A stretch of DNA of 64,000 nt from Psammoneis japonica. Taxonomy: Eukaryota. Under the pieces are notes generated by a model. That model worked only from the letters and a program-made list of their open reading frames with translations, did no database searches and was not told the DNA's origin. The stretch covers positions 260,874 through 324,873 of the forward strand of contig QPGO01000029.1 in NCBI GenBank assembly GCA_008632985.1, in the 5' to 3' direction. Shown here piece by piece: positions 1 to 50,649 of this stretch; positions within the stretch are counted from its first letter, which is position 1, and every line of letters starts with the position of its first letter. Position numbers and translations under genes: made by a program.

Positions 1-23
1 TGCTGCGTTTTGATGCTTGTGTT

Positions 24-258
24 GGTCGAGACACAGTCCTGCAGCTGAGCAGGATGGACAAGACCTCGGAGGTTGGCAGCAATGTGAATGGCGACAGAGG
101 CAAACAGACGCTTGTTGAAAGTCGTTGTCTAGAAAATTATGATGAATGTCGTTGCTTCTGTTTGAATCGATTTTGTGATGAGCTAATTGTTTCGAAGAGA
201 AAATCTGAGTCTGGGTTGCAGTCGTGAGATGCAACCAGAATGACGTTGAGTCGTGACT
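24..258 (-). repeat. 3' LTR of Copia-1
   Basis: Matches 6715-6949 without gaps, 11 mismatched bases, all transitions. Confidence 0.95.
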
Positions 259-267
259 CTCCCTCTC
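259..267 (-). other. Polypurine tract of Copia-1
   Basis: Minus strand GAGAGGGAG immediately precedes the 3' LTR. Confidence 0.75.
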
Positions 268-279
268 AACCGAGAGAGC

Positions 280-3200
280 TTGCCAGCCCACAAGAGCCTT
301 TCTAGCCGTGCGGAACGCATCGGTCCGTAGTCCCTTCGTGAACTGATCGGCTAGTTGCTCTAGAGTGCTGACAGGTTGGATGTCGATCTCCAATTGTTCG
401 ACTTTAGTCCTAAACCAGTGGCAAGGGATGCCGATGTGTTTGGTTCGCGGAGACAACTTGGGCATGTGTGCGAACTTGAGGCACGCGGAGTTATCTTCGT
501 ACACAACGGACGCAGGTGGGACATTCTGCTCTACAGGCGAGTCATCGGTGCCTTGGGTTGCGAGCTCAAAAGCCTTGGAGTGAGTCGTGACAGGGTTTTG
601 GCGGTCAGACTTTCCGAATGCGTGGTGGTTGAGCTCCTTGAGAACTTCACGAATGGGGATGAGATCGCGCACAGCTTGAGAAAGTGCGACACACTCCGCT
701 TCCACAGTCGACAATGCTGCAAGAGTCTGCAGCTTGGACACCCAGATGAGCGGGCAGCCGGCGCAGTAGACAAGGTGTCCAGTCCTGGACTTGACAGAAA
801 CTGGGTCTTGACCATCTTCCACACCAAATGACCCCGCGAAGTCAGAATCGACGCAACAATCAACTCGATGATCTTGCACAGGCTTGAGAATGAGACCTTC
901 AGCAGCAGTTGCTTTGAGGCATCGGAGCATCCACTTCACTGCAGCAGCGTGGGACGCTCGGGGCGCAAACGAGAATCGAGCCACTTGATGTGTGGCATGT
1001 GCAATGTCTGGCCGGCTGTTCGCTGCCAAGTGCATCAACATTCCAACAACTGAGCGACAATCGCAGGGTTCATCAAAAGGCAGGCCGTCCGTGTCGGCAC
1101 CAACAGCCGCAGGCAGAGCTGGAGCAGATGCTCCATTGCAATCCTGCATCTGTGCGGTGCGCAGGACCTTGTCAATTAGACCGGGTTGAGTGAGTGGAAA
1201 TCGACCCTCGGAGAGCTTTTCGATCTTGACACCGAGAAAGTCACCGACTTCTCCTTCGTCTCTAAGTTCAAACACGTGGCGATGTTCGTCATCGGAGACT
1301 CCTAACTTGCGAATTTCGGCTTCTAGAGCTTCAGCTGAAGCTCCAGCAAAAACGGTGTCGTCGACGTGCACCACACACATCATGCCCTCTTTGAAATACA
1401 AACAGGGATCTGTGGCTGAAGGCACCCATCCGCGCTCGGTTAAACCAGCTCGTAACTTCTCGTAGAAGCCCTTGGGAGACTGTTTTAGGCCGCACAGTCC
1501 TTTCAAAAGTTTGAGAACCACACTGAGTCCCGACCTTGGCGCAAATCCCTTCGGCGGTGTTGTGCAAACTTCCTCGGCGACATCAGCTTGGCAAAAGGCT
1601 GTGGCACAGTCCACCTGTCGTGTGGTCCATCCCTCCTTTAATGCCGCAGTGAGCATGAGTCGGACACTGGACCATTGCACAACCGGCGCGCAGGTTTCGA
1701 AGTGGTCGACTCCTTCTTTCTGCAAATCACCGCGGACGCAGTGTCGGGCCTCATGCTTGAGAGGGGTTCCATCTGGGAGTCTCTTGAGCTTCAGCGCCCA
1801 TGTGCCTGGAAGTGCATTCATGTGCGGCTGACGCTCGACTGCTTTCCAGGCTCGACAATGTGTGAGTGCGTTGACTTCAATTTTCATCGCCTCAATCCAT
1901 TCGTCAGCATCCGGACCTTTCAGAGCATTGTGTGACGAAGGCATGTCAGGGTCCTTGGTTTTCTTGCTAGCTGCGCAGGCTCGTGGATCGCCGACATTGA
2001 TGGCGCCACTGTCCAAATCCGTCTCGAGAGTCGCCAGACACGCCAGTTGAGCCTCGTGTCCGATCGGCAGCGGCATTTCCTCGACGGAGCTGAAGTGGAC
2101 CTCATCTGCAAACTTGGCAGAGTTGAGCTGTCCCTTGGTTGACCGTGAAGACCGTCGCAGCCCTGGCGCTCCCTCTGGATTCGTCACAGGAGGTGTCTCG
2201 ACTGGGGGAGGAGCTGTTGGTTCCGTCGGCGCTTCGGGTGGCGGAAGTCCGTTGCCATCTTGAGGTTCAGGTGGCTGAATTGGCGTAGAGTCCGCAGAGT
2301 CTGTAGGAGTTTGAGTCGCAGGTGGGACTGGTGGCGTTGGCTGCTGAGTCACAGGTGCGACTCGATTGGCAACGTCGTCGCGAGAAGTGGGTGAATCCGG
2401 CACAGTGATCGATGGAGCAGGCTCAAAATGCCCGCGAATGCGTGTTGCTCTGGCCAGTTCTCGTTCTTGCACGTACGCTGGACATCCCCATGTGTGAATG
2501 TCGCGCAACCGATGTCTTGGCACTGTCGAACCGGTGAAAATGTCCGCTGGGCAATGTCCTTTGGAATTTGGGGTGACATTGTAGATGTGCGTGGCATGAG
2601 AAACTGCCATGGGCCACAGGGAGCTGTCAATTCCCCCCTTCCAGTGGATTGATGCATGAAGCAACATCGCTCTCGCCATGTTGGAGATGCTGCGGATGCC
2701 CCGCTCTGCGACGCCGTTCTGATGATGGGCGTTGGTTCCACAAAAACGGAGACGTTGTTCATGTTCTCGCACGTGTTGTACAAAAGCGTTGGCCTTGAAA
2801 GCGCCACTGTCGGCAAGAAATTCTTGGACGATGACCCCGTGGTCCAAAGCATGTTTCTCAAACGCTTGCTTCGCGTGCATCGTCTCAACAGCGGAGAAAC
2901 CCAGTTGGTGCTCGACCTGGACATAGCCAGAGGCGTGGTCGACAAAGACACAACCACCCTTGAATTGCTTGGACGTGGCTTTGCCATAAGAGTCGAAGGT
3001 GCGGCCTAAAAGGCGCGACTCAAAATGATCAACGCTGACAGCCTGACCCGGTCGAAGATGGTCAGCTCGAAGGGCCCCGTCGCGTTCAGGGACTGTCGAC
3101 TTGTGAGTAGATCCAAGAGAGCGTCCATGACCTTTAGCACATTCGCATGCCTCGCATCTTGGGTGGTCACACTTTGCTGCGGACTGGAAACGGTTCGAAA

Positions 3201-6200
3201 GGAACGGAACTGCGCGGAGAAGTGCTTGGACTCGACCAAAGTTCAAATGGCCAAAACGGGCGTGCATTTCGAGAAGAAGCTTTTGGCCTGCCGTGAGGTT
3301 TTGATTCTCCTCGTTAAGGATCTGAAGGTTCACTTGAGGAGCGGCAGATGCGCCCTTGGTCATCGACGCAACAGGCAAGTGGCTTGATGGATGATGTGGC
3401 ACGACCAACTTGCCTGTCCCGTCAACATGTAAACGGAAAGTGGTTTCATCGCCCTCACACTTCCCACGTACCCCCTTCTCTTCGTTGAAGAGGCGTTGAG
3501 GCGACAGCAGGCGCTGACGGGCTCCAGGGACGTAGCATGCCATGGTGTTCAGTTGGATGGTAGCCCCACTCGGCGTTGTGAACACCCACGCAACTGGACC
3601 GGTGCCCTGGATGGCAAGACCGTTGGCAATCCCATTGATCTGTAAGGGTTTCTTGGGAACAGTCACAGGCCCCGTAAAATCATCTTTGTCGGGGGCAACA
3701 GCTAACGTGGCACCAGCATCCATGACGACCGTGAGAGCCTCGTCCGACAGACCGATGAGTGCCTGCGGATCGGATGCAAGGAGGTTGGCTTGTGATTGTC
3801 CGGTGAGTAGTTGGATGGTGGAGGCACCACAGACGACTGGTCGAACACTTGCTTCCTCCAATGGTTCCACAGGATCTTGAAAATGGGCAGTGTCCACGAT
3901 GTGATGCGGCAGACAGAGCTCATCAAACCGGAAGAAATCCGGGCTGAAGTCCTCAAGAGCGTCAAAGAAATGCTTCTGGTCGTCGAGAGGTTCCAGTTCC
4001 TCACAGGTGTCAAAGAAGGCTGATTCGTCTATCGCATCAGACCGTTCAGCTACTTCTGGGCTCTCCCAGCAGGCCTTGAGACGAGTGCTCAGTGCGTGTG
4101 ACGGATGGCGCGCGACAAACTCGGTGAGCACTTGCGTGCCTTTGATCCTGTGATGTTCGAACAGTGACCCCGTATCCAACACTGTCCGGTCATCTGGCTC
4201 TTCCACAATGTGGCAGACTTGAGAGCCAGCGGTCGAAAAACGACTTGGTGCATTCGAGAATGGATGCTCGGGCTGTTGACCGGCGCAAACTGCTGACCAC
4301 ACCATCACTGCAACGGATGGGACCATCCAGGAGGCTGGAAACCCGTGCAAAGTTGGGAGTTTGCACTGGCGGCGTAGAGCTCGAGGGATGCATGGGATCG
4401 GAGCAAAGCAAAGATGCAGTGCCGTTTCCCAAAACATGGCGGCGAGCCAGAATGTGAATGGCTTGACTCGACCCAAGAGTGAGCGACGCGAAGTGGGCTC
4501 GTCTTCGACGTCCTCGTGACAATCATCCGCATCCAGGACCTCTGGATCGTAGAAATCAAAGCCACGATGCGTAACACACGGAGGCAAGTCGTGGCATGCG
4601 TCTTCAAAGTGTACGTCGTGTTCAAGGATGAGATCTAACTTGGTGTCGTCTGACAGCATGTCCGTCAAATGTGCGGGAGCATCAAAGAACTCATCTGGAT
4701 GCTTGACAGAGCACAGCTTCGAGGCCGGAAACAACTCAATAGCCGGTGGTTCGTTTTCAAAGGTAGAGAAAGCGTCGGAGCACTCGCAGAAGTCATCGGC
4801 GTCTTCGGGAGTGACAGTCTCAACCACGATGGGAGACACGACTGGATCCACGACTGAGGTGAGCACAGGTGGGCTCGTTTCGATGCAAACCACCTCAGCA
4901 CTAACGACTGCATCGCTCTCCCTCTCGGCCAAAGAAGCCGGAGTAACAACAATTGCAGCAGCAACAGGGGCGGAACAGAAATCCGGGTCGGCAACGGGAT
5001 CCATAGCCGCGCACCACATTCCCGTGAAAACCAACTCGTTGGGGTCGGATTCGTCTCCCTCTGGTGCCTTGGTGGTCTGAGCGGGCGGACCCATGGGCAC
5101 GCCACTGTCCGGATCAGCAATGGAAGACAAATTCCCGGCTGGGGTCTCCTTGGGAGGTTGCCTGCGGTCGTCGGCATGTTCCGCGGTAGAGTGCTTCTGG
5201 CAGATTCCAGGTTTGTCGGCACCCTTTGCCGTGCACGTGGCACACCACTTCCATTCCTTGCCATTCTTATCCTTCTTCGTTTCTCCGTCAAATTTAGTGC
5301 GCCAGGCAGCGATGGGTCGCCTCTTCTTCTTGGAAGGGTCGTCTGCAGGCGGCGGATTGGGAGGAGGATCGTCGCGCGGCGGTTTGGCGTTGCACTTCGG
5401 ACACGTCTTCTTGGTGCACCCCTCGAGACCGCAACCACAACAGTGCTTCGTCTTCCCAGGGTTGTCCGTAGTCGAAAGATTGCTCTCGGGTAGCTTGGCG
5501 ACTAATGCAGGCCATTCCCCGTCCTTCACGAGTTCGTTGTGTTGCTCTTGAATCCACGCAATGATGCCGACCAGTCCGAGCGTTTTGCAATCGCTGTCGG
5601 ACACGATGTCAGCAGGATTCTTGAGGCGGTGCTTGCGTTCCATGGCCTTGACGTCGTCGAGCTTGTTGCAGACTTGGCGATTGAAGCATTCAGAGGATGC
5701 AGAGGAGATCTTGTGGAGCAACTTGGAGCTTGTGTTCGCCGGAAGCGCGCAGTCGGTCTGCACAATTTTCACGATGCGAAGAGCTTCGGTGGCAAAGTCC
5801 GTGCAATCCTCGCCGGGATGGTCAACCAAACCAAGGTCTTCTGGCTGCTTCTTGGCCGTCTCAATGTCCGCCAGAGCGCTGGTGTTGCAAGTGTCGAGAG
5901 CCATCATGAATGGAACAGATCCAGGGCAGTCTTGGCAGTCCGAAAGATGGTTGAACTTGGTCTCGATTTTCTCGCGAAAGGTGTCAGTGATTCTTGAGTG
6001 AACGAGAAGTTGAGAGAGCCCGACATCGTCGAGCTCAATCTCGTTGTACTTGGCATCATCGGCAGCTGCTTTCCCAACCGTGTACTCGTTCACGAGATCG
6101 GTCACAGTAAACTCGTGAAGATGGTCGAAGACACATTGAACCTTGTCGTTGCTGTCCTTGACATGGCAGAACGTCTGCTGACCGTGGGCTTCTGCTAGAT

Positions 6201-6552
6201 CTCGAATGGTCTTGACGAAATGGTCCTTGTCAAGCTCGTTGATGGGACCGTCCGAAATCTCAAGTCGACCGTTGAACTTGGAAGTCATTGCGGAAGCTTG
6301 TTGATCGCGGAGAGATCGTTCTGTCGAGTCGAGAGCCTTGGGATGACGGCGCTGAGAGGCAAGTCGGCAGGTTCTGTCGTTGGATTGTTTGCAGTTGTTG
6401 TTGAGTTTGGAACCACCAATGTAAACCCCGTGGGTTGGGTGAATTCCACCACGCAACGGCTTGGTTGGAGCCGGAGGAGCGGTCGCCGCGGCGTCAGCGG
6501 CCATTGCATCGGCAAACGCCTTCGCCAGAACATCTTGATCGATGGCAGCCAT
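280..6552 (-). pseudogene. Copia gag-pol polyprotein, about 2090 codons, frame apparently open but with conserved Tyr replaced; natural stop lost
   Basis: Read manually (absent from the ORF track because the frame runs off the window edge without a stop). ATG at 6552 (MAAIDQDVLAKAF); gag WKWCATC..H....H; protease MDAGATLAV; integrase VSVDHFE and HQNGVAER; RT LKGLCGLKQSP and CVVHVDD (1357-1368); RNase H CVDSDFAG, EAECVALS, LADQFTKGL; ends KALVGW then CAA (280-282) where TAA is expected. Frame spot-checked at several points, not at every codon. Confidence 0.9.
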
Positions 6553-6714
6553 GACAGAGAGTGCAGCATGGGAGGTTCTTGTTAGAGTGAAGACGAGAGA
6601 AGCGAGAGAGACTCAGCTATTTCCCGGGTTTGCTTCAAAATCAAAAACCGAAAGCGTCCGTGACGATGACTCGGTCAGGAGCTCTCGTCAACGCGTGAAT
6701 TGGTCTCTGTGACC

Positions 6715-6949
6715 AGTCGAGATGCAGTCCTGCAGCTGAGTAGGATGGACAAGACCTCGGAGGTTGGCAGCAATATGAATAGCGACAGAGGTAAACAGAC
6801 GCTTGTTGAAAGTCGTTGTCTAGAAAATTATGACGAATGTCGTTGCTTCTGTTTGAATCGATTTTGTGATGAGCTAATTATTTCGAAGAGAAAATCTGAG
6901 TCTGGGTTGTAGTCGTGAGATGCGACCAGAATGACGTTGAGTCGTGACT
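6715..6949 (-). repeat. 5' LTR of Copia-1
   Basis: Direct repeat of 24-258; retains TA at most sites where the other LTR has TG or CA; followed on the minus strand by a possible primer-binding site (T)GGTCACAGAGACCA. Confidence 0.95.
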
Positions 6950-7156
6950 ATGTTGTTATCGAGCGGCGGTGCGAAGCAAAAATTCCGCCCAAACCCTGTT
7001 TTTCGGGACTCATAACCCCTGCACATGGCTTATAGACACATCACGCAAGACGCAAGTTCCAAGTTGACGATGGTCGACGTAGCCCTACTTTAAAAAGTCA
7101 GAACACAGAACCCTCTTACATCATATTGCAGAGCTTAAGGTTCTTTTAGTGCTGCC

Positions 7157-8981
7157 ATGGAGTCCACTAATGGTGTCGACAACTCGAAGCAACAGAAATC
7201 AGTAGCACAAGAGACAACCGGTGACCCGTCGCACACGTGCCCGTACTTGGATACCATTGATCGTTCCGTGTTGGACTTTGACTTTGAACCGTCGTGCTCC
7301 GTGTCGTTGGAGTCGGGTCCGCACGTTTACGGGTGCTTGGTGTGTGGTAAATTTTTTCGAGGACGCGGTCAGCATACACCCGCTTATACGCACAGTGTGG
7401 ATGATGGGCACTTTGTCTACGTTCACTTGGCACGTGGGACCTTTCACTGCTTACCAGATGATTATGAGATTAAGGATCCGTCACTTGCAGATATTTCAGA
7501 CGCTCTACATCCTCATTTTAGTCAAGACGATATTGATAAGGTCGATACAAACACTGGACTGGCTCGAGATTTGTTTGGGCGTCGGTATTTGCCCGGCTTT
7601 GTGGGCTTGAACAATCTTCACAAGACAGACGGTATCAACGCTATAGTTCAAGCCTTGGCGCACGTTCGACCTCTTCGAGATTTTTTCTTGCGCATGACAC
7701 ACAATGATGTCTCTATTGAAACTACAAAGTCAAAGAAAAAAGCTCACAAAAAGATCAAGCTGCAGCAGCAAGGGCCGCATCGCTTGTCACCGTTGGTGTT
7801 GTGTTTTGGTGAGCTCATTCGCAAAATATGGAGTGATAAGCGTTTCAAGAGTCATGTGGACCCTCACATGCTTGTTCAGGCCATTACGGTTGCATCAAGT
7901 AAGAAATTTCGAGTCGGCCATCAACCCGAAGCTGGTGAATTCATGGCGTGGCTTCTCCATCAGTTGCATGTGGGGTTGGGAGGGACGAGGAAGCCTGGAT
8001 CTAGCATTATTCACAAACTCTTTCAGGGACGTGTTCAAGTCACTACACGACAACGGCGAATTGCGGATATGTCAAATCTAGAAGAAGATGATCGGGGTGG
8101 CAGTGACGAGGAAGAAAATAACGAGGAGCACAAGCAACAGCCAGAGGTTGTAGTTGATGAAAACACGACAGATACGCACTTTTTGCAACTAACGCTGGAC
8201 ATTCCCGAGAAGCCCTTGTTTCGAGATGACGAGGGAGGCCTAGTCATTCCTCAGGAACCACTCGTCTCTGTATTGAAAAAGTTTGATGGCATGACGTTCT
8301 CCGACGCAATAGATCGGAGTGGCGTGGCACAAAAGCGTCGGTACCGTTTATTGGAGTTGCCAAATTACCTCATTTTGCACTTGGCTCGGTTCAAGAACAA
8401 TCGCTACTCCAAGGAAAAGAATCCCACCATTGTGGCCTTTCCGGTCAAGAACTTTGATTTGAGTGAATACGTTGTTCATCCGGACGGGAAGCGGGAAGAT
8501 CCTCCGACTGAGGAACAAGTCAAAGCAATGAGTGTGAGTTGAAGGACTGTCTGAAGCTATTGCTTTTTTGCCATAAACTCCTAACCTGTGTATCTCCTAC
8601 TCATTTCACTCAACATAGACCAAGCAGCTCAAAGTACTTCTCGCCAAACACGGACGACAAGAACTGGGAGCCAACATTGTCGAAAAGTCTGAACTCGTGT
8701 CCGTCACGCTTGATTTTGTCACAAAAAGTTTGCCCGACATGCTTGCCGACAAGTATGACCTTGTAGCAAACATTACGCACCACAGTCCAGCAGAAGTTGG
8801 GAGGGAGGGACAACATGATCCGTTACAAGAGGGCTCGTACAAGTGTCATGTTCAGCATCGGGGGACTGGTCAATGGTATACAATGGAAGATCTTCATGTA
8901 GAAGACACTATGCCGCAGTTGATTGGACTGTCAGAAAGCTACGTCCTCATCTTTGAACGCAAGGGTATCTATGCTAAATGA
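7157..8981 (+). CDS. USP39: U4/U6.U5 tri-snRNP-associated protein 2 (USP39/Sad1), 2 exons: 7157-8533, 8619-8981, 579 aa
   Basis: CPYLDTIDRSVLDFDFE, ZnF-UBP (YGCLVCGKFFRGRG), YLPGFVGLNN with Asp in place of the catalytic Cys, EKNPTIVAF, YDLVANITH, SESYVLIFER; GTGAGT...CATAG intron 8534-8618 joins the two ORFs in frame. Confidence 0.95.
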
Positions 8982-9309
8982 TCAGAAAATCCTTTATTAA
9001 CTACGGTGAGTTACCGCTAGAAACTCTCCCCGCTTTACGATTCCAGCTTGGATGTCGCCGTCTGACCTTTGGATTTCAAACCAAATAAATAATTTTATAC
9101 TTAAAAGCAAAGATCTACGACTTTCTGAGTCTTTTTCGCGTCTATCAATGGATAGCCGCCATGTTCATGGAGGTAGTGCAGAGGCCTCGGCAGCTGACCC
9201 GAGTGTGGAATGCTGGCATCCGCAAGAAGGGGAGTCTCGAGCAGTTTGGTATTTTGAACCGTATTGTTCAAAAATACGCGTCGAGTGATGGGGATGGCCT
9301 TCAGCTTGG

Positions 9310-9556
9310 TAGGGCCCTCTACTCTCTAGAGTAGGCCCTCCCTAATCTAGCTCTCTACTCTAGTCTCTCTAGTAGAAGTAAGGTAGCTAGCTGCTACTCT
9401 AGAGAGTAGCTACTACTAGTTGGTTATCCGTACAGATAAGAGAGGCTGACAAAGAATTGTGTGCGAGTGCACTCTAGCCCTGCTCTACAGATAGAACTGT
9501 GGAGCGAGAACAAATCGTGCCGTAGTCTCTAGGGCCCTACAGTAGCTAGGGCCCTA
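9310..9556. repeat. CTA/TAG-rich low-complexity patch with short palindromes
   Basis: About 30 TA dinucleotides in about 250 bp, mostly CTAG/GTAG/CTAC; TAGGGCCCTA at 9530-9539 and 9547-9556. Confidence 0.7.
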
Positions 9557-9645
9557 CAGACAGATCGTCCCACTCGAGTCGAATAAGTCGTTGCTGCTGC
9601 TCGAAATTCACGGTAAACACAACACACAACCAACAAACACACACC

Positions 9646-10245
9646 ATGGCGACATGCCCGACTTCTGCCTCCAGTACGACTGCAAATACAACCACATCAG
9701 AAACAACAATCATGCCTCCAGTACAGTCTATGCCCACATCGCACGAGAACTCCGAGCTCGCGGATGGCAAAGGCACCAGCACTCATGCTGGCGAATCGCA
9801 GGAATCACCCCCTTCCAAGCAAACGCCGACGCAGTGTTTGTCGCCAACCCAATTGAAAACCGATGGGGCGTCGGAATCTTCAATCATCTCGAGTACCAAC
9901 CCCGTACTGGCTTCCACATTGTCCGATAATGAGGGAGAGGTGATGAAACGAAAGCACGAACACGACAGTTGCAATGTTCGGACTAACAAGAAGAGGGGCA
10001 CGCTTCCACTTGCCACTTCGATTCATATGAAGTTGCGTGCTGCCGGGGACGCTGGGGATAAATGGTGGCATGATCTTGAACGAAAACATGGTTTGAAGGA
10101 AGAAGAATCACTCGTGGTTTATGGAATCGTCACAAAGAACTTACACAAAGAAGAGTTTCCACCGGTCGGCGAAGGCTCGAAAAAGGAGTACTTCCTTTTG
10201 GCTAAGGAGGGTTGGCGCTTGATGAAGAATACAACGCTCTGCTGA
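9646..10245 (+). CDS. Hypothetical protein (Ser/Thr-rich N-terminus, charged C-terminal part); possibly transposon-associated or a pseudogene
   Basis: 199-aa ATG ORF after an AC-rich leader; normal TA/CG content; no recognisable family. Confidence 0.4.
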   Translation: MATCPTSASSTTANTTTSETTIMPPVQSMPTSHENSELADGKGTSTHAGESQESPPSKQTPTQCLSPTQLKTDGASESSIISSTNPVLASTLSDNEGEVMKRKHEHDSCNVRTNKKRGTLPLATSIHMKLRAAGDAGDKWWHDLERKHGLKEEESLVVYGIVTKNLHKEEFPPVGEGSKKEYFLLAKEGWRLMKNTTLC

Positions 10246-11199
10246 AACTGCATCCAAAAGAAAATGCGGAACAAATTTGTCGCGATGGTGTATGGACGAT
10301 GGTTCACGCCAGTCGCTGACAACGACTTAAGGCGTGGTAAAAGAGTTTGATCAGGCCGTATCATGTCTCCGTGTCCATGTGCCTGAGAATAAAATAATAA
10401 TTTTCTTGGCGCAAAGCGTTATTTTCATTCCAACAGTTTCAGTTGGCAATGAAGAAGCATCTGATGAACCACCCAATAATGACTCTGGAGTCCTTGTTCA
10501 AGAGACCCCAAACCTCTGCCCATGTGTTGGGCTTACATTAGAAGGGATAAATCCAAATGAGGCGGGGCGGGTTTCTCTGAGGCTTTCGCCCCGGATTGAA
10601 CCTCCGGTGTCTCGCCATACAAAGTTCCCAGTGCAGAGGCCAGCCTTCTAAGCTCCATTCGCATCTTGGTGCAGTGGTTCGTAAGGGGTGAACCACAGGG
10701 CCGTAGCCACCAAGAAGCATGCATTGTGTTCTGTGCAGATGATGAGCGGGAAAGCCCAGCTTCGCATGCAGTGAGAGACGAGGAATTGTTGTTCTACAGG
10801 TGTCCTTTTAAAGAGAAGAGATTTGAGCAAACCCTGATGCCATTGTGAAATCTGGGTGCTTGGTGAAAGGATTCCACTTCAATCTTCTTTTTTCTTGAAA
10901 GCTGAAACAAGCAGGGCAACCAGTGCACAGACAACAAATGTCACCATTTTTCTTTGTTGACAGTTTGCAGCATGTGCCATGGCTTCTTTGTTGCATGGCA
11001 TGGGTCATCTTCACATGTTGACTTTCATGGCAGCACAGCTGACCTCCATCAGACTCTCACAGTCAATGTCAGATCAGATGCTTGCTTGTCTTGCATCACC
11101 AATGACATGGATGAATTGCATTGCTCCCCTCTCTTGATCCACACGGATCAACAGACAGAGCCAAAATTGCAATCACATCAAGCCAACAACCAAAGCCAC

Positions 11200-12776
11200 G
11201 AATCTGCTGCCTCCATTGATGCCCTCATGATGCTCAACCCTGCTGGCCCCTCCTGAACCAAGCTTGCCACCAGCGCTCATTTCCTTGGAGGGATGCCCTG
11301 TCAGCTCCATTAAATTTGTGGCCAAACACCTTGCCACCAAAGCTGATGCATTTGTGCCCTCCCTTTGCCTCTTCTCATCCTGCTTGCTGACAAACAAACT
11401 CAAAGCTGTTTCTTCAGACATGTGCACTCATGTCCACATCCCAGCCACCTCCTTTTCTCTGACATCTTTTACAACCTCTCCTTCACCTCTGACAATCCTG
11501 CCCATGCTTGGTCATCTTTTCTTGACTGCATCTGTGCTTCCTTCTGACACTTCCTCCATCATCTGACCGACTGCCAATCTGACCTTCTCTTCCATGCTCT
11601 TGCTTTTGCCCAGAGGCCTGCCTTCCTCCCGCCATCCCTCCTCCCTTTGTCACCTCCCTTGCTCAATCCCTTCAACACTCATGCCTTGGTGTTGACTCAA
11701 CAGGCGACCCAACCATCAAACTCCATCCAGCTCATTCTTCCACCCACCTCCATCAAGTCACTTCCTGTGACCTTTGTGGTCTTCCGATGTCTGAATCACC
11801 TCTGTGCCATGCAAGTTGTTCAATTCCTTGTCAACAACCCATCCTTCCACCATGGCTTCAACTGCTTTCTTGTCTCCCACGCAAGCCTTGCCCTGCTTTC
11901 TTTCTCATGCTTGCAAGAATGCAACCACCTCTTCCCCTGCTCCCTTGCCATTGTCCCACTCCAACACAAACTGTGCCTTCCGTCCTTCCCTCTTTACACT
12001 TGCAGGTGCAGATTGCCCCTGTGGCCACAAGCTTGATGCCTGTGGTGACCATGCCTTCTCATGCTCTGGTGCCTGCAAACCCCTCCTCTCTAACTCAGTT
12101 GGAGACATGGTCTGGTCACTCTGCCATGCTCTTGGCCCCCTTGCTGGCCTCTGCTCCACCACCTCTGATGTGATCATTGTTGAAACCCTGGGCCTCCTTG
12201 TTCCTTCCCCACCAAATGCCATGCTGACATTGGAGTGCAGTTTCACACACACAATTCTGCTGCCATTGTTTTTTCTCTGTCCCTGCTCCCATGCCACCCA
12301 CCACTGTGTGCCAGGTTTGCCACCTCCCTCCAATGATCCACTTGCCATGGCACACCACAGCAGTGCTTGGAGCAAGTTTGTTGCTCAATCTGCCCCTTCC
12401 TCCTGTGGCCCTGAAATCATCCAGTGGCTTCACAGACTGTGGCAGCATCTTCCTTCTCCCCTTCACCTTTGGCCAATTCTCTCCCCACCCTCACAACCCC
12501 CCCCAGTCCTCTCCCCAAGATTTCAATGATCTTGATTGGCTCACATTGCCTGCCAATGCTCCCTGCTTGCCCTTCTGGCCTCCTTTCGTGTGCAGATGCT
12601 GCCTGGTCCCAGCTCTGCCCTGACTCCTTTGGCACTTTTTGCCACTCTCACTCCCCATCCAAGTGGGCCTCCCAAAACCTTGCTGTTGACAACATGCCAT
12701 CTGCCCTTTCCCCTCCCACCTGTCCTGCTTCCCAGAACAATCCAGTCACCTGCCACTGCTGCCTGTCTGACCTTCC
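11200..12776 (+). mobile_element. Degenerate CRE-like non-LTR retrotransposon fragment
   Basis: C-rich; residual peptides ADKQTQ and CPCGHKLDACGDHAFSC (zinc knuckle) are collinear with the element at 48524-50632. Confidence 0.65.
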
Positions 12777-13089
12777 TGTTGGAATGTTGAGATGAGAGAC
12801 CCAAATGTTGTGTGATGTGACCCAGACAATTTGAACAGGAAGGATGTGGATCCTGATGTGGTCCACCAATGTGACCATCTTTGATGAGATCACAACTGTC
12901 ACCACATTCTTTGCATGTGTTTTATTCTCACTCTTTGGAGTGAATCATTTGGTTTGCATGATCCTCAGTTGGTGTCAAGAGGCACCTGTCATTTTGGGAG
13001 TCACGCAGTTTGCATTTGTGCCAAGGCATGCCACAGAGCTGACACATGCTGCCAAGGCCAGTGTGATGAGTTGCTCAGGAGACCTCTGA
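12777..13089 (+). repeat. 5' LTR of Copia-3
   Basis: Begins TG; aligns with 19427-19733, differing mainly by CA/TG swaps. Confidence 0.8.
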
Positions 13090-16000
13090 AGATTTTTTTT
13101 GTTTGGAAGACATTGACTTGCTTGTTCAACATTCACTCCAAAGAGTCACAGCCCTGCATTTGGTGCTCATTTGCCTCAAGACTGCCACCCACACCAAGAC
13201 ATCAGAACACCTGCAAAATGAGTGGGAGGAGGTGGTGGATCAAGCTGTCAAGGCCAAGATGCATCATGGCAGATGTGGTGGAAGTCACAGGTCATCAAAT
13301 CAGAAGATGAAGACCAGTGTCAAGAAACACCTTCAGTCTGAGATGAATTTTCATCCTTTGTCACTGAACACAGCAATTCCTGAAATGCGACATTCAAGGA
13401 AGTCCTCAAGAAGATTGCTCCACACACACAGAAAAAGCATGATCAAGGGGCACATCCAGCAAGATCCATTGAAGACATGAAGCAGAAAGAGTTCTCAAGC
13501 AAGATGCTCACATGTGTGGGATCTGACATCATGCTGCCAGCAATTGATGACCCCAACTGCCATGAACAGCTCATGAAGAAAACCAACAAAGGCAAAGGTG
13601 TGGAAATGCAGCACAAGCAGGACTGCAACGATTGGTGTGAGAAGGTCAAGAAGTTCAAAGAGAACAAAGCTGCCACATTTGCAACAGACAAAGCAGAGAT
13701 TGAAAGGCAGCCCTGATTTCAAATCTGCAAGAGAGGATCCAGCTACATTGCTGAAACTGATGATGCTTGCCTTTGATTCTGTGGTGAGAGGTGGGCACCT
13801 GTTCCATGTGCTCATGAAGGCATGGAAGAAAATCCTTGATGGAGGCAGCAGGCAGCAAGACACCAACCATTGAACAACTGCCTGTCAAGATTCAAGAACC
13901 AGCAAGACTCCACTGGAGAAGCATTGGGAGACAAGTTGCTTGAGACGTGTTCCTTTCAAGCATGAGGGAACACAAAGATGCTGACAACATGAAGAAGAAA
14001 GAAATGAAGGAGCTTGCATTTGAGATGTGGACAACACACCTGTTTGTGGCAAACAGCAATGTGATCACCACTGCAAGAACCTGAAGATGAGCTTCATGAG
14101 AGACCACAGCCTGGACAAGGACACCTGTCCAAAGGCCCCAGACAAGGCAATGGATGTTGTGCCCGACCATCCAAAAGACAATGATCTGCACAAACAGTGG
14201 AAAGACGCTGCACGGAATGACTGCAACTAGAACAACAGGACCAAGAATGGGAGTGAAAGCACTGACTCAGAGGAACAGAAGGACCAGAGTCATGCTCAAC
14301 AGAGCAACCAGAGTGACAAGTTCATGAGTCACTGTTGTGGTGCAAAAGGCCACATGACCCCCAAATGTGGCCACAAGGGCACTGTCCTCCACAACAGGTG
14401 GTGCAAGAAGACTGGTGAGAAGCCAGAAAATGGGGTCCAGAGCCATGCACAGATGCAAGGTGGAAATGACAAAGACTCATCAGTGGAGAGTGACAGTTTG
14501 AGTGTCAACACCATGAGATCCAATGGATCAACCCAGCCCAGCTGCAGCAGAGGCTCTGCACAGCAAGGGTTGCAGTTGGACATCAAAAGACTGGAAGTGA
14601 GCACAAACCAAGCCAATGCAAACATCAATTCACAGGAGATTGTCCTCAAAAATGGTTTTGCCCTTGGCATGGCAGCCAGCCAGAGACCAGTGCACAATGT
14701 GTGACTGGCAAGGATTGAGATTGATCTGTCAACCAATGCAGGTGTGGATGCCCTGGACAAAGACTGCACAATGCCAGGGTGGGGAGACACAAAGCTTGGA
14801 TCAGATGGCACAACAGCAAATGCCTTTGTTTTAAAGGATGCAAAGAACAAGTGCCGCATGACTTGTGATGACAGAGTGGCAGACAAGTTCCAACCAAGAA
14901 GACTGGAAACAAAGTCATGGTGTTCAAGGTCAACAACATTGGACTGCACATGTTTGCCCCAAGTCAAGAATTCTTCAACTGCACTGAAGAGCTGCAAGCA
15001 CATGTGAGGAGCATGTGAGCATGCTGTCAAAGGATGAGAAGAAAACTGCCAAAAAGAAGTGCAAGGGCACCTCTGCAGTGAAAAGGGTTCCAAGCTGTTT
15101 TTATGATGGAATCAGGCAAAGAATCTGTCCAACATGCTGGAAGATGTGGACAGAATGGCGGACATGTGGGGGGCATGGACACATGCACTAAAAGGAAAGA
15201 CCAAATGTGTGCACCATTCCCACAAGCCCATGAGAGGAACAATGTCACAGCATTGCCACCTGAAAATTAAGAGAAGCAGAGAGACTGCATGATGCTCTGC
15301 ATTGATGTTGTGGAAGTGTGTGGAGTCAAGATGCCACACTTGACAGACAAGACTGTCAAGCACCATTCCAGCATGAAGCTCAAGTCCAAGAACCATGCCA
15401 ACACACACAAGGCATTGGATGTGATCCTGCAACAGTGCCACATGAGCACATTCAAGATCATTTTCATTGAGTGCAACCCAGCATTCAAGGACATGTTGGC
15501 AGCAGTTGCTGATGGCATGGACCTGGTGTTGATGTCAATGAATGCCAGTGACCATGTCCATGAAGTTAAGAGAAGCGTTCAGACTGTCAAAGAAAGAGCA
15601 AGCACTTGGGTCACTGCGCACCACCTGCCACACAAGACAACACCAAAGTTGACATGTGAGCAAGCCAAAATCAAGAACGCAGTGATGACAAATGTGCACC
15701 CACAAAAGGAGGGAATCTCAGACACACACAGTGCACACATGATTGCACAACAAAGACACCTCAGCTGTGACAAACATTTTGAATTCTCATTTAAAGAATT
15801 TGTCCCATCCCATGCCAAGCCCAGCCAATCAAACACAATGGATGCATGTGGTGTTGACAGCATCTGCATGTGACCATGCCATGATGTCCTGAAGGGCAGA
15901 CACTGTGCCATGAACTTGCACAAGAGCAAGCTGCTTAATTGCTGCAGGTTTGCCATGATCCCCCTGACTGACATGCACATTCAAGCAGTCAAAGAAATCA

Positions 16001-19000
16001 CCATTGCCAAGGGCATTGAAGAATTCAAGCACACAGGCAATTGCAGGGACAACTTGTGCAACAATGGCTGGATTGCAGCAGTGGACCACAATGAAAGCAG
16101 CAACAAAAGAAACAGTGCAAGCAATGACAAACACAACAAAAACAACATTGCCAACAAAAAAGACTGTGAAGAAGAAGAAGAAGAAGTGGGAGCTTCCAGT
16201 GACAAATGTGGAGAAGCTCAAGATGTGTTGGCAGACAAAAAGCAGAGCCCAGATCAGCATCATGAGGATGACAATGACATGACCACAATGACCAAGACAA
16301 AAAGCATGAAGAACAAGAAGAACACAAAGACACATCACAGGACAGAAACAAGCAAGTGGAACAATGTGACCTGAAACAGACCAGAAGCAGCAGATCCTGC
16401 ACAGTGGTGACATGCCACAAGAAACATGAGGCTGCACAGAGAGAACCAAGAGCGCAATTCACAGGAGTGGCAGCAGACACCAAAGAAGAAAAATGGAAAC
16501 AGTTCAAAATTGAATGCTGCCATCATTTGTGGACAAATGCAAGCCTGAATCCAAAGAACAACATGCACTGCAATGCAGAATTGGAGTGGTGATTGCACAC
16601 TTCATGTGTGAGATCAATGACCAACTCTAATTGGGAGAGGACATTTCCTCAGCCCACAGCAACACCTGCCACCTGAGTGCCTGCCGCAAAGGCATTCAAC
16701 CCAAGGAGGCATGAGGCCTCAGAGAAAAAAGTTGGTCAACTGTGCAAGCAAGTGTGCTTTGTGCCAATGCAAGCCAAAGACATGACTCTGATTGAAAGAA
16801 AAAGATCTGTGACAGCTTTGATGTTCCTTGCAGAGAAACAAGATGGTCGAGTCAGAGGACGAATGGTTTGCACCAGTGGAAAACCAACAAGAGAATGGTT
16901 GGACAAAGATGAGTCAGCCAGCCCAACAGAATCATTGGAAGGAATCATGATGACAGCTGTTGTTGATGCCAAAGAAGAGCAAGACACAATGAGCCCCAAC
17001 ATGCCAGACATGTTCATGCAAATGATTGATGCCAGACCCCAAGGAGGGCAAAGAACAGATTGTGATGAAGATTGCAGGAGTGTTGGTCAACATGCTGGTG
17101 AGCAGTGATCCCAACCCATGTGGGCCACATGTGTTCCCAGAGAAGGAAAGAGAGAGTCCTCTGCACAAGAGACCATTGGAGCCATCTGTGGCATGTTGGT
17201 TGCAGCTCTGCTGTGGCATGAGCAACTCCACAAAGACCTGGAGAAAATTGGGTTTAAGTTCAACCCATGCAATCTGTGCATTGCCAATCGCACAGTCAAT
17301 GCAGCACACTGTCTGTTTCCACATGGATGACCTGCTGTCAAGCCACAAGAACTGCAAGGTTGATGACAAATTCCTGAGTTGGCTGAACAAGATGTGTGGG
17401 AGCCATGGCAAGGTCATTGCTGCTCAAGGGAAGAAGCACAACTGCCCAGGATGACCCCAGATTTTACCAAAAAGGCAAGGTGAAGGTCAACATGACCAAC
17501 TGTGCAAAGAAGATGGCAGACGAGTTTCCAGAGAAGCTTGAGAGCACGGATGCTGCCATGACACCAGCTGGGGAAAACTTGTTTGACACTGGTGGCACTA
17601 GATTGCCAGCCAAGAAAGCACATGTGTTCCATGAGTGGGTGGCCAAAGGGCTGTTTGTTTCCAGGAGAGGCCACATGGATGTGCGCTTCACTGCAATGCA
17701 TCATGTGTGCACGTGAGGGAACCTGCCAACAAGGGTTGGGGGAAGTCAGTCCATTGTGTCAAGTGTCTGAACTGGACACAAAACCAAGTTGCCACATTGA
17801 GCGCAGATCACCTCTGAGTTGTGAAGTGGTGCATGGAGACATTGCAGTGCACCCTGACTTCAAGAGCCACGCTGGAGGAGACCAATTTGCAATGGAGTGA
17901 TGCAGGCTGTGTCAAAGTGGCAGAAACTCAACACTGAAGCCGCACAGAGGCTGAACCAGTTGGAGTTGACAACGTGATAACTGTGATCTCATGGAGCAAG
18001 TTGTTCATAGAACACCAAGGTCATCCAATCAACAACAACATCCTGCACCAGGATGACAAGAGCACCATTCCACTGGAGACCAATGGGCACAGAAGTGCAG
18101 GCAAATGATCAAGAGGAGCACTCAACATTCAACATTTCTTTGTTGCCAATCAGATCAAGAAGGGCAACTTCAGAGTTCAATGACAGAAAAGATGCTTGCA
18201 GACTTGATGACCAAGCCATCACAGGGCAAGAAGTTCCACAAATTCAAGGGAGCCATTGTGGGCTGCTGAAGAGAAGGCAAGCATGAAGGACACACAAGCT
18301 GTTTGTGACATCAAACAAGAACTCTGATGCATGTGGCTGAAATTGGAGCAAGTCAGCACCCAAGAACCCAATTGTCTCACATGAGGTGTCCAGCATGAAG
18401 CAGTCTGCTGACCCTGGAGTTTGAGAAGGATGGAAAGATTGTCTGGACCTGCGCCCATGGCATGACAGACAAGTGTGCAAAAGAGCTTGAAGACAAGTGG
18501 CCCAAGCAGCAGGCAAAAGGGGTTTGATGCAATGTGCAATGTGTGCAAGGCCTGGAACAGATGGCCAGGTGAAGTTCATCAATGTGTGTCAACTGCTGCA
18601 CCAATGACCTCCATGTTCAAAAAGGGAAGTGTGAATTCACACAAGATGATGGAACAAGCAAAGGCAGCACACATGACCAAGGAGTGTCAGCACATTGTCA
18701 GGACAGGCACAACAATCCAAGGAACAAAATGTTGCAGGAGTGGCAACAATGTGGATTGTTTCAATGGATGCAATGAAGAAATGACAGTGAGGTCAAGAGG
18801 TGATGAAGGTCATGTTGTTGCCCTTGACAATGAAGACATTGGTCAACTGTGTGGGATCAGTCAACAGTGAGTTGTTCCACCTGCAGCTGTGGGATGACAC
18901 CAGGTGTGGTGCATGTGGGCCACTTGTGGAATGTGTTCCCAACCATCACAACAACATGACACATTGGTGGTTTGGTTTGGCAACAGATGACAGTGGAGTT

Positions 19001-19426
19001 GTCTGTGATGCCTTGAAGTTGGCATGCTTTTTTCAACAAGAAGCTGTGTTGAAGCAAAGCTGGTCAGAAGCGGGGCTGTTGTGATGTGGAGTTTTGCCTG
19101 TTGCTGCTCTGGAGAGTTGACAAATGGGTGGCAGAAGGAATTGACAAGATGGATGCAAAGGGGTTGTACAGCAAAGAAGCATGAGAGAAACTCTGTCTTG
19201 CCTGTGCAAAGAGTTTTGTCAACCAGGTGCATGGCATTGAAGATGAGTTTGATGTGATGCCACACTTCAAGGGCTGCAGATTGGGTCAAAGAACATTCAT
19301 GATGTGTGAGTTGCCATGTGATGACAACATTGCCATGCCAGATGAGTTGGGTGGGACTGCATTGAAGAATCTCTGATCACTGTTGTTGGGGAGGAAGATG
19401 GGTCATCAATGCAAGCAGCAGGAGTG

Positions 19427-19733
19427 TGCGGGAATGTTGAGATGAGAGACCCAGATGTCACACAATGTGACCCAGATGATTTGAGTGAGAAGGATGTGGA
19501 TCCTGACCTGGTCAATGGACATGACTTTCTTCAATGAGATCATGACCATCACCACATTCTTTGCACATGTTTTGTTCTCACTCTTTGGAGCAAATTGTTT
19601 GGCTTGCACAATTGTCAGTGTCAAGAGGCACCTGTTGTTTTGGCAGTTGCGCAGTTTGCATTGATGCCAAGGCACACCATGGCTGACACATGCCACCAAG
19701 GTGAGTGAAGTCAGTTGCTCAGGAGACCTCACA
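19427..19733 (+). repeat. 3' LTR of Copia-3
   Basis: TG...CA termini; aligns with 12777-13089. Confidence 0.8.
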
Positions 19734-19899
19734 GGATGCCCCCTTTGGGAGACATTGACTTCTGGCTCAACACTTGTCTTTCCACCCCTCCCCTCCATCT
19801 GATCAGCATCCATCTGGTGCCCCTTTTTTCTCCAGTCCTGCTTCTCCTGTGGTTTGGGTGTTGCCACACCATGAGCAGGGTGGGAAATTGCAGTGGCGG

Positions 19900-28700: not shown

Positions 28701-29630
28701 TGACTCTTTTTCTTTTTGAGTGAAACAGCAGATGCAAAATGATGCCATTAAATTTTGTCTTTGCAAACCAAACATCACACACAAATGACCGTTGAAAAAT
28801 GACGACGACCGCCCCTCCTCCCGAAGTGCAATTTTCCTTCATGTGCTTGTTGCTCTCACCCCACACATGTGCTGCACTGTCAAATGATGTGAGCCTGAAG
28901 CTGTGAACCCTTTCAGTTTTCAGAAAAAGGCCAAACCACAGCATGCAGCACAAAAAACATGCAGAATTCCATGGCAACACTTTGCCGTGTTGCAAATCAA
29001 AATCATGTGGTGAAAGCACAGTGAAAAGCATGAGGGGTGGAGAATGTCCACATGAGCAATGCAAGCAGTTTAATGTCACACAACTGTTGCTTGACACATG
29101 CAAAGGTCATGTGTCTCAAAACTGTCACCAGAGCAGAGATGTCAAATCAAAAATTTTGGGCGGCCCTTGTGTCACCATGGCAAAGTGCGGTGAAACGCTC
29201 GCCAAATTGCCACACAAATTGCTGGCACAATTGGCTGGAGATGCTTTGTGAGGCTCTAAATGACTGTCAAAGCAGATTCCCTTGGCATGAGATCATTGTC
29301 AAACAGGACCAGAAATGGGTTGTCTCTTTCCTTCATGCTTTTGCCGTGGTTTCCATTTTTTAACCACACGGTGAAGTGCGCACGTAATTTTGTGCCAAGC
29401 GCTGCAGCATGCTGTTGTTTTGTGGCAAGGGATTGTGCACTAAAGACCAAAGTCTGGGAATGCAGCAAATGGAAGATGGCTAGACTTGCAGTGCATTTTC
29501 CACATGAAAAAATGTCCAGGTTCTTGTCCACCGTCATGTGGAATTCTGAGTCACGAACAGTGATTCGTGGGCAACTGCAGTCTGAAATCTGTCCTTTTGA
29601 AGACGAAACAACACGGCAAAGCACGGGGCA

Positions 29631-29793
29631 CCATGGCGCCCTTTGGACGCCAATGTCTCAAAATCTGACAGGGGGCATGACCCGGTCTCAAGTGCATTTT
29701 CACTTGTCAGGCAATCTTGTGCTCACATGGCCATGAGACCGGGTCATGCCCCCCATTGGATTTTGAGACAATGGCGTCCAAAGAGCACCATGG
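29631..29793. repeat. 60-bp imperfect inverted repeat with 43-bp spacer (MITE-like or hairpin)
   Basis: 29631-29690 is the reverse complement of 29734-29793 with about 7 mismatches. Confidence 0.85.
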
Positions 29794-30276
29794 AGCTGAC
29801 GGTTTTTTGATGCTGTGATGTCAGCACTGATTTCCTCACAGGAATCCAGTGCAATCCCATGCAGAATTTCAAAAATCTCTTGGATGCACATCACACAAAT
29901 TTGCACCTCCCATTTGCTCAACAACGGTTGACGAAATCAACATTGCTGATTGCTGTTCATCTCAACAACCTTGCTCATTGTCAGTCAACGTGACGTCCAT
30001 TTAAGAAAATGCCAAAAAAGAGTGACCCTTCCAAAGCTGCAGCCTGCGCTGCCACACATCGCCTCTACACTGCACCAGCCACGGAAATTGAAAACCATTT
30101 TTGCAATTGACAGAAATGTGGTGGACACAACGAGCCACACCACATTGACTGCCAACGAGCCTTGGTCACATCTGCTGTTTTGAGAATGGAAACTCCAATG
30201 AAAGGAGGCAACTGCTCTGGCTTCAAAAACAATGAGCAGCCAACCAAGGCTTCACTGAAGAATTGGGATCCTCATC

Positions 30277-31297: not shown

Positions 31298-31573
31298 TGA
31301 CAGAAAATGAAGGCAAATGGCAAGAATTCAAACAACAACTCCTTGCTGCTGTCTAAATGGCAGATGAGTCTCCGCTCAGAGACCGTTGCAGGAGCCGAAA
31401 GACGCGCAAGTCGGCATGATCGGGCTGCTGTTGTCATTCTTGTGAGCCTTGTGGCTTGAAAGCAAACTACATCGCGCGTGAACGCGCGGAACCAAAGCAC
31501 ACAAAACTGTGCACGGTAAACTAAACAGCGCGCGACACTTCGCGCGCACCCAAATCCTGTTCAAATCCTGTCA
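31298..31573 (-). repeat. 3' LTR of Copia-2
   Basis: Ungapped direct repeat of 35573-35848. Confidence 0.95.
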
Positions 31574-35848: not shown

Positions 35849-36067
35849 TTGCACAACAGCTCTCTTGCTCCCCATGATCGCGCTGCTTCCCCCACAATGA
35901 CGATGATGCCCCTGCTTGGCAAGATGTCTCTTCTGACCACCCATCAAGCTCACTCTCAAGGCCACTGCCAGTTGGTCCATCTCGGGCCTTGTGGCTTGTC
36001 ACAGCAACCTTCTTGCTTTTGACGCTCCTCTTCAAAAGAGCAACATCAACAGTTTGTTGCAGACCCA

Positions 36068-50632: not shown

Positions 50633-50649
50633 TGAAGTTAGTTCTTTTG

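Follow-up and report, generated by a model that had tools for sequence, protein, structure and literature searches.

Both long terminal repeats (LTRs) of a new retrotransposon copy derive from one template, and the question raised by Copia-1, an LTR retrotransposon of the diatom Psammoneis japonica, is by what process, and at what stage, its two LTRs came to differ. Copia-1 lies at the start of the stretch analysed here, 64,000 nt of assembly GCA_008632985.1 (contig QPGO01000029.1, positions 260,874-324,873, forward strand), which we call the window and whose numbering is used throughout. The evidence set out below indicates that TpA steps in Copia-1, in the host DNA beside it and in older repeat DNA have been converted to CpA or TpG in the chromosome, and we consider such DNA-level, domain-targeted TpA hypermutation highly probable.

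The LTRs of Copia-1 differ at TpA steps

Copia-1 is a full-length LTR retrotransposon on the minus strand (24-6949), with LTRs of 235 bp each that are 95% identical. Its RVT_2 domain, single gag-pol open reading frame (ORF), LTRs, 5-bp target site duplication (TSD) and polypurine-like tract identify it as a Ty1/copia element of the diatom CoDi type. The LTR ends read AGTC..GACT, not TG..CA. The parts of the element are as follows.

19-23, no strand: left TSD copy GTGTT; the G at base 19 corresponds to an A in the right copy and marks a TA>TG change in host DNA (T18 A19 to T18 G19)
24-258, minus strand: 3' (left) LTR, hypermutated, with 3 TA left and rho(TA) 0.18
259-271, minus strand: purine-rich tract GGTTGAGAGGGAG (minus strand), directly upstream of the 3' LTR, a putative polypurine tract
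280-282, minus strand: lost stop codon, now CAA and presumably once TAA, directly after Trp codon 285-283
283-6552, minus strand: gag-pol polyprotein ORF, open but hypermutated, rho(TA) 0.20, rho(CG) 0.94
1114-1851, minus strand: reverse transcriptase domain (Pfam RVT_2, E 3e-32, residues 1568-1813)
3133-3267, minus strand: weak gag_pre-integrase match (E 9e-4, under the Pfam cut-off; residues 1096-1140), upstream of the reverse transcriptase; the domain is present in homologues
6715-6949, minus strand: 5' (right) LTR, with 9 TA, rho(TA) 0.50 and 13 CG
6950-6954, no strand: right TSD copy ATGTT, making a 5-bp TSD whose copies match at four of five bases

The sequence-only reading that preceded this analysis had counted 11 mismatches between the LTRs, all of them transitions, and our LTR alignment returned the same 11, at left-LTR positions 24, 32, 33, 50, 84, 90, 101, 143, 189, 219 and 233. 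Their contexts were likewise as first described. Written left over right, there are three CA/TA steps (50, 101, 219), three TG/TA steps (84, 90, 189), one CA/CG and one TG/CG step (143 and 233 between them), one reciprocal CA/TG step (32-33) and G against A at base 24. Ten of the 11 differing bases fall in pyrimidine-purine (YpR) steps and the eleventh belongs to the junction TA, leaving not a single difference outside TA, CG or the junction. Under a null of random transitions on the right LTR, where 21.7% of positions create or abolish a TA, the probability that at least 6 of the 8 single-site differences are of TA type is 0.002, and it is again 0.002 for all 8 being of TA or CG type.

The two LTRs have not been affected alike. 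The right LTR retains TA at all six single TA sites (P = 0.03), TA loss amounts to 7/10 in the left LTR versus 1/10 in the right (Fisher P = 0.02), and the left LTR bears seven of the eight TA-type changes together with both CG-type changes of the pair. With some 70% of the element's TA lost, no background difference between its LTRs and rho(CG) still at 0.94, the pattern points to burst-like hypermutation and not to slow decay; the TpA process has been much faster than background substitution and than CpG decay.

The direction of change is from TpA to CpA or TpG

Comparison of an LTR pair gives by itself no direction, and we took polarity from outgroup Tyr columns, the stop codon and the TA content of old repeat DNA. 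The closest homologues of Copia-1 are polyproteins of 2,100-2,300 amino acids, with up to 54% identity over 1001 amino acids (the pol half); the best of them carry PF13976 and PF07727, and two are diatom-named (Fragilaria crotonensis, Nitzschia inconspicua). Tyr is encoded by TAY, Cys by TGY and His by CAY. In the 36 alignment columns where at least 70% of 44 homologues have Tyr, Copia-1 has Cys in 17, His in 8, Tyr in only 4 and other residues in 7, while 11 control homologues treated alike keep Tyr in 24-32 columns each and show at most four other residues. Over its whole length the Copia-1 polyprotein contains 0.6% Tyr, versus 2.5-3.9% in 70 homologues.

The stop codon tells the same direction. 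Five homologous polyproteins all end at the position of Trp codon 285-283, and the next Copia-1 codon is CAA where a TAA stop is expected; the single ORF, which begins at 6552, consequently reads through the left LTR and off the window end. Within this extended frame, the left LTR has CAA and Cys or His codons at the places where TAA and four Tyr codons stand in the right. By part of the element, rho(TA) is 0.50 for the right LTR, 0.18 for the left and 0.20 internally, and 64 related elements from metagenomes range from 0.47 to 0.86 versus the 0.20 of Copia-1. Outgroup polarity and these values together indicate that the right LTR is near its state at insertion and that elsewhere in the element about 70% of TpA is gone.

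The original claim that TA had become CA or TG, and not the reverse, is thus borne out by outgroup Tyr columns, by the lost stop and by the scarcity of TA in old repeat DNA. An opposite course, in which a process like repeat-induced point mutation (RIP) turned CpA into TpA and so added TAs to the right LTR, could be argued from the LTR comparison, which alone cannot set direction; it is refuted by the outgroup columns, the lost stop and the near-zero TA of all old repeat DNA, and we give it practically no credence.

The changes arose in chromosomal DNA after insertion

The insertion junction dates the process. The TA at 23/24 is made up of a host T and the LTR's A and exists only at the 3' junction; at the 5' LTR the equivalent base has a C before it and has stayed as it was. 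The TSD reads GTGTT at 19-23 versus ATGTT at 6950-6954, and it is the copy beside the mutated LTR that carries TA>TG, so that the changes reach into flanking DNA, as had been proposed, with host base 19 converted in the TSD copy adjoining that LTR. By our own arithmetic, chance would produce a 4/5 TSD match whose one mismatch is a transition with a probability of about 0.006; a 4-bp TSD was rejected, as it would not abut the LTR end. The 23-base left flank contains no TA and six TG.

Further support came from sequencing data. Three runs were available, from a single sample of a single study that is possibly the assembly's own source, and we compared a DNA run, X1, with the window through Logan contigs. 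Single-copy X1 contigs (word depth 54-76) match the TA-free blocks described in the next section, each piece of 0.6-2.9 kb having 0-11 other letters. The listed places at which window and X1 differ, 40 of 466, include no TA site of the LTR; those in the blocks include three TA/TG differences, three tandem TG/CA differences (at 12169-12170, 12684-12685 and 16745-16746) and seven differences of CG against CA or TG. These differences show that the process has continued at the same locus. An origin in the chromosome, as opposed to reverse transcription or RNA, therefore holds on two further counts, since all three LTR pairs of the window differ mainly at TA- or CG-type steps and since one locus differs as TA/TG between window and run.

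Errors of assembly, or of base-calling at modified bases, might mimic such a pattern, and X1 possibly comes from the assembly's own sample. Nevertheless, X1 contigs at uniform depth reproduce the blocks, where dozens of G>A and C>T per kb would otherwise be expected, and the pattern is codon-consistent with edges that are sharp at genes; an artefact is in our view highly improbable.

Older repeat DNA in the window has lost nearly all TpA

Two LTR pairs besides that of Copia-1 are present in the window, as are three blocks of TA-depleted DNA.

12781-13086, no strand: left LTR of an old element, E2, with its partner at 19431 to about 19730
19431-19730, no strand: right LTR of E2, from the repeat pair
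31298-35855, minus strand: C3, a second copia element, with LTRs at 31298-31580 and 35573-35855 and TG..CA ends
10800-31297, no strand: TA- and CG-free block that holds E2; rho(TA) 0.00-0.09, rho(CG) 0.02-0.45, CA and TG about doubled
35856-37600, no strand: TA-free block separating C3 from the gene that follows; across 37600-37999 TA climbs from 0 to 13 per 200 bp
49400-58000, no strand: third block free of TA and CG; at about 58000-58400 TA climbs from 2 to 13 per 200 bp

In a 1-kb dinucleotide scan the three blocks together show rho(TA) of 0.00-0.11 and rho(CG) of 0.02-0.45, with CA and TG near 2. Their 30.8 kb contain 100 TA, 294 CG, 3568 CA and 3382 TG, compared with 791 TA, 1063 CG, 1364 CA and 1353 TG in 19.7 kb of gene DNA. 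TA density is accordingly 3.2 per kb in blocks versus 40 in genes, and the total of YpR steps per kb is near-equal (239 versus 232), in keeping with a process of transitions alone. Block edges are sharp and lie a few hundred bases from genes, and at several of them (37200-37600, 48400-49400) the TA-free zone outreaches the CG-depleted one.

Loss of TA also removes stop codons. Over six frames, TAA and TAG number 122 in 20 kb of block DNA versus 398 in 10 kb of gene DNA, and 64 ORFs of at least 110 amino acids lie between 10 and 31.3 kb. Long ORFs in all frames of this repeat DNA follow from the erased stops and are by-products, not genes. No Pfam domain above cut-off was found in the ORFs of the blocks and of E2 (22 + 39 ORFs), and tblastn of seven copia polyproteins against the window gave matches in Copia-1 and C3 only and none in the blocks. 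A microsatellite nature of the blocks was rejected, there being zero tandem repeats.

Two stretches within or beside the blocks stand out in other respects. From 48300 to 50800 the DNA is C-rich (GC skew -0.39, G+C 55-57%) and TA-poor with normal CG, has two to three times as much CA as TG, and carries overlapping 300-amino-acid ORFs on the plus strand that match nothing in Pfam; possibly it is a younger element in which TA was resolved with a strand bias. An inverted repeat at 29628-29796, with 70-nt arms that are 84% complementary and 29 nt apart, lies within a TA-free block.

Both additional elements bear the same marks as Copia-1. The C3 LTR pair shows four reciprocal CA/TG, four TA-type, five CG-type and four other differences, with 17 of 21 differing bases in YpR steps, and at 41 conserved Tyr columns C3 has Cys in 16, His in 8, Tyr in 13 and Phe in 4, as against ten controls that keep 43-48. 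C3 has no recognisable TSD (TTGCA at 31293-31297 versus ACAGC at 35856-35860) and its ORF spans 1361 amino acids versus about 1850-1900 in homologues; it may be a deleted element or a recombinant of two elements.

The E2 pair, over 277 aligned columns, differs by 18 reciprocal CA/TG steps, one TA/TG step, 12 other transitions and six transversions, and 37 of its 55 differing bases lie in YpR steps. The left LTR still has one TA and one CG, the right no TA and one CG. The reciprocal steps fit an ancestral TA or CG that was resolved independently in each LTR. We also considered one-step flipping between CA and TG and found it unneeded for the LTRs, since the reciprocal share in E2 (18 of 64 YpR steps) fits independent TA/CG resolution. 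The E2 LTRs run about 30 bases past the repeat-finder limits (13058-13086, 19702-19730), sharing a GAGTTGCTCAGGAGACCTC-like end after an insertion or deletion. A search for hidden old copies, by purine/pyrimidine-coded self-comparison of the window, gave only the three LTR pairs.

The target is a strict 5'-T-A step with a preference for a following pyrimidine

Conserved codons of Copia-1 and C3 allowed the sequence context to be examined base by base. At codon position 2 before a pyrimidine (Y), A>G was found in 33 of 77 TAY codons, compared with none of 60 CAY, one of 42 AAY and two of 110 GAY. Among the conserved Tyr codons of both elements, Cys outcomes outnumber His outcomes by 33 to 16 (P = 0.02). 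This excess is owed to the preceding base: where a purine precedes the codon, so that both strands offer TAY, His and Cys are near-equal (11 and 10), and where a pyrimidine precedes it they stand at 5 and 23 (Fisher P = 0.015 for dependence on the preceding base).

The TAs that survive in the blocks follow the same rule from the other side. YTAR accounts for 74 of the 100, one-sided contexts for 24 and RTAY for 2, as against 20, 51 and 29% in related elements (P = 4e-41). The relative survival of two-sided sites, 0.019, is near-equal to the square of that of one-sided sites (0.127 squared), as expected if the two strands of a TA are hit independently. By our own arithmetic the favoured context, TAY or equivalently RTA on the other strand, is changed about 2-4 times faster, and 11 of the 16 directly observed events are at TAY. 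The target is a strict 5'-T-A step, changed by transition, with a preference for sites before a pyrimidine.

Surviving CGs show no flank rule, and CG loss lags behind TA loss. Slower and without a flank rule, it is a separate process, presumably 5-methylcytosine (5mC) deamination.

Copia-1 family and neighbouring genes

Copia-1 belongs to an abundant family: summed word depth over the element is 4080-6923, versus 54-68 in single-copy bins, a depth that does not equal copy number, and 3310 contig pieces, 85-100% alike, align over 259-20000. The genes neighbouring Copia-1 are ordinary eukaryotic genes, and the right LTR stands about 200 bp from the start of one for a ubiquitin hydrolase. Inside that gene, a contig of another run, X2, omits 85 bases with GT..AG ends (8534-8618), from which we conclude that this segment is an intron and that X2 is apparently an RNA run. 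At 6714-6798 a low-depth X2 contig enters the Copia-1 LTR from another flank, which points to another family copy or a read-through transcript elsewhere.

A possible mechanism and its alternatives

The explanation that we favour overall, and to which we give somewhat more than an even chance, is post-insertion, repeat-domain-targeted TpA hypermutation, most likely by way of adenine deamination. On this reading Copia-1 integrated and was then struck by a mutation process that acts on the chromosomal DNA of transposon-rich domains, turning TpA into TpG or CpA with each strand of a TA hit independently. The process spares genes, halting within a few hundred bases of them, and is nearly complete in old repeat DNA. 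The chemistry envisaged is the conversion of adenine to hypoxanthine in DNA, which would be read as G; it would need no more than simple hydrolysis, as when cytosine is deaminated in RIP or by APOBEC, and we put adenine deamination just short of an even chance. The agent may be a deaminase that needs a 5' T and is recruited to silenced repeat chromatin, as an adenine counterpart of fungal RIP. We propose tentatively, and with a little less confidence than the chemistry itself, that a natural diatom enzyme edits chromosomal adenine in TAY, with a near-absolute requirement for the 5' T, and is drawn to silenced transposon domains as a heritable defence ('adenine RIP'). As the sequence shows, the TpA process erases TAA and TAG stops instead of making them, turns Tyr codons into Cys or His and leaves G+C roughly level, and TA-containing signals must be lost with it.

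A requirement of this kind has partial precedents, as tRNA adenosine deaminases always meet U33-A34, and U/T-A-C is favoured by TadA of bacteria and by the earliest base editors made from it. Candidate enzymes exist on paper: the available part of Iyer et al. 2011 (PMC3239186) describes deaminases that are restricted to stramenopiles and joined to SAM and 1-22 Tudor domains, as well as Rossmann-deaminase proteins, and suggests editing or DNA-mutagenising roles. AID/APOBEC-like enzymes are present in algae, according to an excerpt of PMC5889660. A route through N6-methyladenine (6mA) was judged unlikely, given that 10.1101/2024.10.28.620566, as far as its text was accessible, places eukaryotic 6mA at ApT in active genes and reports none in the diatom tested. 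Many diatoms have DNMT4, related to fungal RID and of undescribed function in the consulted portion of PMC9998398. The TpA change is not at cytosine, unlike what a DNMT4 route would lead one to expect.

Were thymine attacked instead, a TET/JBP-type dioxygenase or another modifier would act on the T of 5'-RTA-3', and the modified base (5-hydroxymethyl- or 5-formyluracil) would pair with G and yield T>C. The motif is equally readable as RTA; the T of TpA and the 5mC of CpG are both 5-methylpyrimidines before a purine, and both are lost here; and thymine modification is enriched at TpA in dinoflagellates, while kinetoplastid telomeres carry base J at their TpA steps. Base J, however, has a pyrimidine before its T and not a purine, we know of no modified thymine in diatoms, and CG loss shows no flank rule and runs far behind TA loss, which leaves one enzyme for both unsupported, so we regard this route as unlikely. 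Nor need there be a dedicated enzyme at all, if methylated heterochromatin had a slow, context-dependent mutation bias, for example through error-prone patch repair after 5mC deamination by a polymerase erring at WA motifs. Polymerase eta does make A>G errors at TA and AA, and the blocks are CpG-depleted too, presumably through long methylation, but Copia-1 lost about 70% of its TA with no background LTR substitution and little CG loss, the TA-free zones extend past the CG-depleted ones at several edges, and AAY became AGY once in 42 against 33 of 77 for TAY to TGY, which shows that AA is not a target. We think this bias improbable as well.

RNA editing would place the event earlier, in transcripts edited by an ADAR/ADAT-like A-to-I enzyme and fixed by reverse transcription, with LTR differences brought in by later gene conversion or cDNA recombination. 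A>G with a preference for 5' U is typical of RNA adenosine deaminases, and the Copia-1 family has many diverged copies. The two LTRs of a new copy nevertheless have a common template, and still the members of three pairs disagree at exactly these steps, those of E2 at 18 reciprocal sites; neither the TSD base nor the junction TA belongs to any RNA context; after correction for context neither strand is preferred (His 11 versus Cys 10 where both offer TAY); the same locus differs as TA/TG between window and run; and the 5'-T requirement is far stricter than that of ADAR. We consider RNA editing very unlikely. Transcription-coupled targeting of the DNA was rejected as well, the 3' LTR being changed to its last base and on into the TSD and the R-U5 of the 5' LTR being spared.

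Several points weigh against adenine deamination in targeted domains, the reading we prefer. The evidence comes from one 64-kb window and sequencing runs from one sample. TA is self-complementary, so that sequence cannot separate A>G from T>C and the chemistry is one that we infer; we know of no natural enzyme that deaminates adenine in chromosomal DNA; and known adenine deaminases are a poor fit, ADARs favouring a 3' G and tolerating other 5' bases. The three reciprocal TG/CA differences between window and run compare with about 0.2 expected from independent double hits, and hot sites, ectopic conversion or a one-step double change are possible sources of the excess. The right LTR has kept nine TAs, seven of them in the favoured context, though mutation is evident in DNA 320 bp away, where the Tyr codons of 6393 and 6369 have already changed; with a survival of about 0.19 per favoured site, such sparing would be an event of about 1e-5 by our own arithmetic. 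Our guess is that a sharp domain edge near the promoter of the ubiquitin-hydrolase gene explains it. Finally, none of the 64 related metagenome loci, from other diatoms, is a hypermutated copy; the patterns used for the scan included Tyr, by which mutated copies would escape it, and this makes the count uninformative on other diatoms.

Consequences

Repeat-targeted chromosomal hypermutation has so far been described as fungal and cytosine-acting, and a second system, in diatoms, a major group among the marine algae, acting at A:T pairs through a three-base motif would, if true, be a new form of genome defence. It would also imply a natural DNA adenine-editing or thymine-modifying activity of biochemical and biotechnological interest. 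An 'adenine RIP' would destroy Tyr codons and TATA-like or other TA-bearing signals without producing AT-rich DNA or stops.

Practical consequences concern annotation and dating. Naive dating of insertions from LTR divergence is unsafe in such genomes, as Copia-1 appears 4.7% diverged with a background substitution of zero. Transposon annotation will miss heavily mutated copies, 31 kb of blocks having yielded no Pfam domain, and ORF lists are inflated here by long repeat-DNA ORFs, which are a by-product of erased stops and not genes.

Comparison with known systems

Full-text literature searches, subscription journals being outside their coverage, turned up no account of TpA>CpA/TpG hypermutation, whether in diatoms or in other organisms, and the accessible portions of Maumus et al. 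2009, on the diatom CoDi elements, and of a 2025 preprint on diatom transposons hold no passage on it. Several known processes nonetheless share some of its traits.

Hyper-editing by ADARs and fungal ADAT2/3-type A-to-I mRNA editing resemble it in that A is read as G and U/T is favoured before the edited A. These enzymes act on RNA, whereas the change here is in DNA; ADAR-type changes would be common to both LTRs, and the LTRs of three elements differ. ADAR prefers 5' U>A>C>G and 3' G, unlike the neighbours found here, where a 5' T is almost always required and a pyrimidine, rather than G, is favoured on the 3' side. TadA-derived adenine base editors, used in the laboratory, deaminate DNA adenine so that it is read as G, and early versions favour T/C-A-C, mirroring tRNA U-A-C. 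That motif is close to the TAY found here, but the enzymes are engineered, and to our knowledge nothing like them acts on chromosomal DNA in nature.

APOBEC editing of LTR retrotransposons and retroviruses, in the available text of PMC4866542, offers a further likeness as deaminase-type hypermutation in genomic retroelement copies. APOBECs, in contrast, deaminate C on minus-strand cDNA before integration, giving strand-specific G>A common to both LTRs, while the process described here changes A:T pairs after integration and on both strands. CpG decay through 5mC is present in the window in its own right, with CG>TG/CA at two sites in the Copia-1 LTRs and five in C3, and near-complete loss in the blocks, as the rho(CG) values and CG-type LTR differences attest; methylation is here presumed, and a portion of PMC9998398 describes diatom transposons as CG-methylated. 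It leaves the loss of TA unexplained: that loss proceeds faster, obeys a flank rule of its own and reaches beyond the loss of CG.

Among known systems, RIP of Neurospora and other fungi comes nearest. Like RIP, the process acts after insertion on chromosomal repeat DNA, makes only transitions at a dinucleotide target on both strands, can saturate, leaves a strong regional dinucleotide signature and spares genes; that it acts on duplicated chromosomal DNA and not on RNA or cDNA is seen here in the LTR pairs, the TSD base and the window-run differences. The host is a diatom and not a fungus, RIP being described as fungus-specific in the part of PMC7882544 available to us. One LTR of a high-copy family was spared here, unlike in RIP, and this is not predicted by pure homology targeting. 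The deepest difference lies in the change itself: RIP converts C:G to T:A, mainly at CpA, which raises TpA, makes DNA AT-rich and creates many stops, whereas here A:T becomes G:C at TpA, so that TpA disappears, stops are erased and G+C is kept. In place of RIP's defining C:G>T:A at CpA, Copia-1 and the repeat DNA around it record a change in the opposite direction, at TpA.

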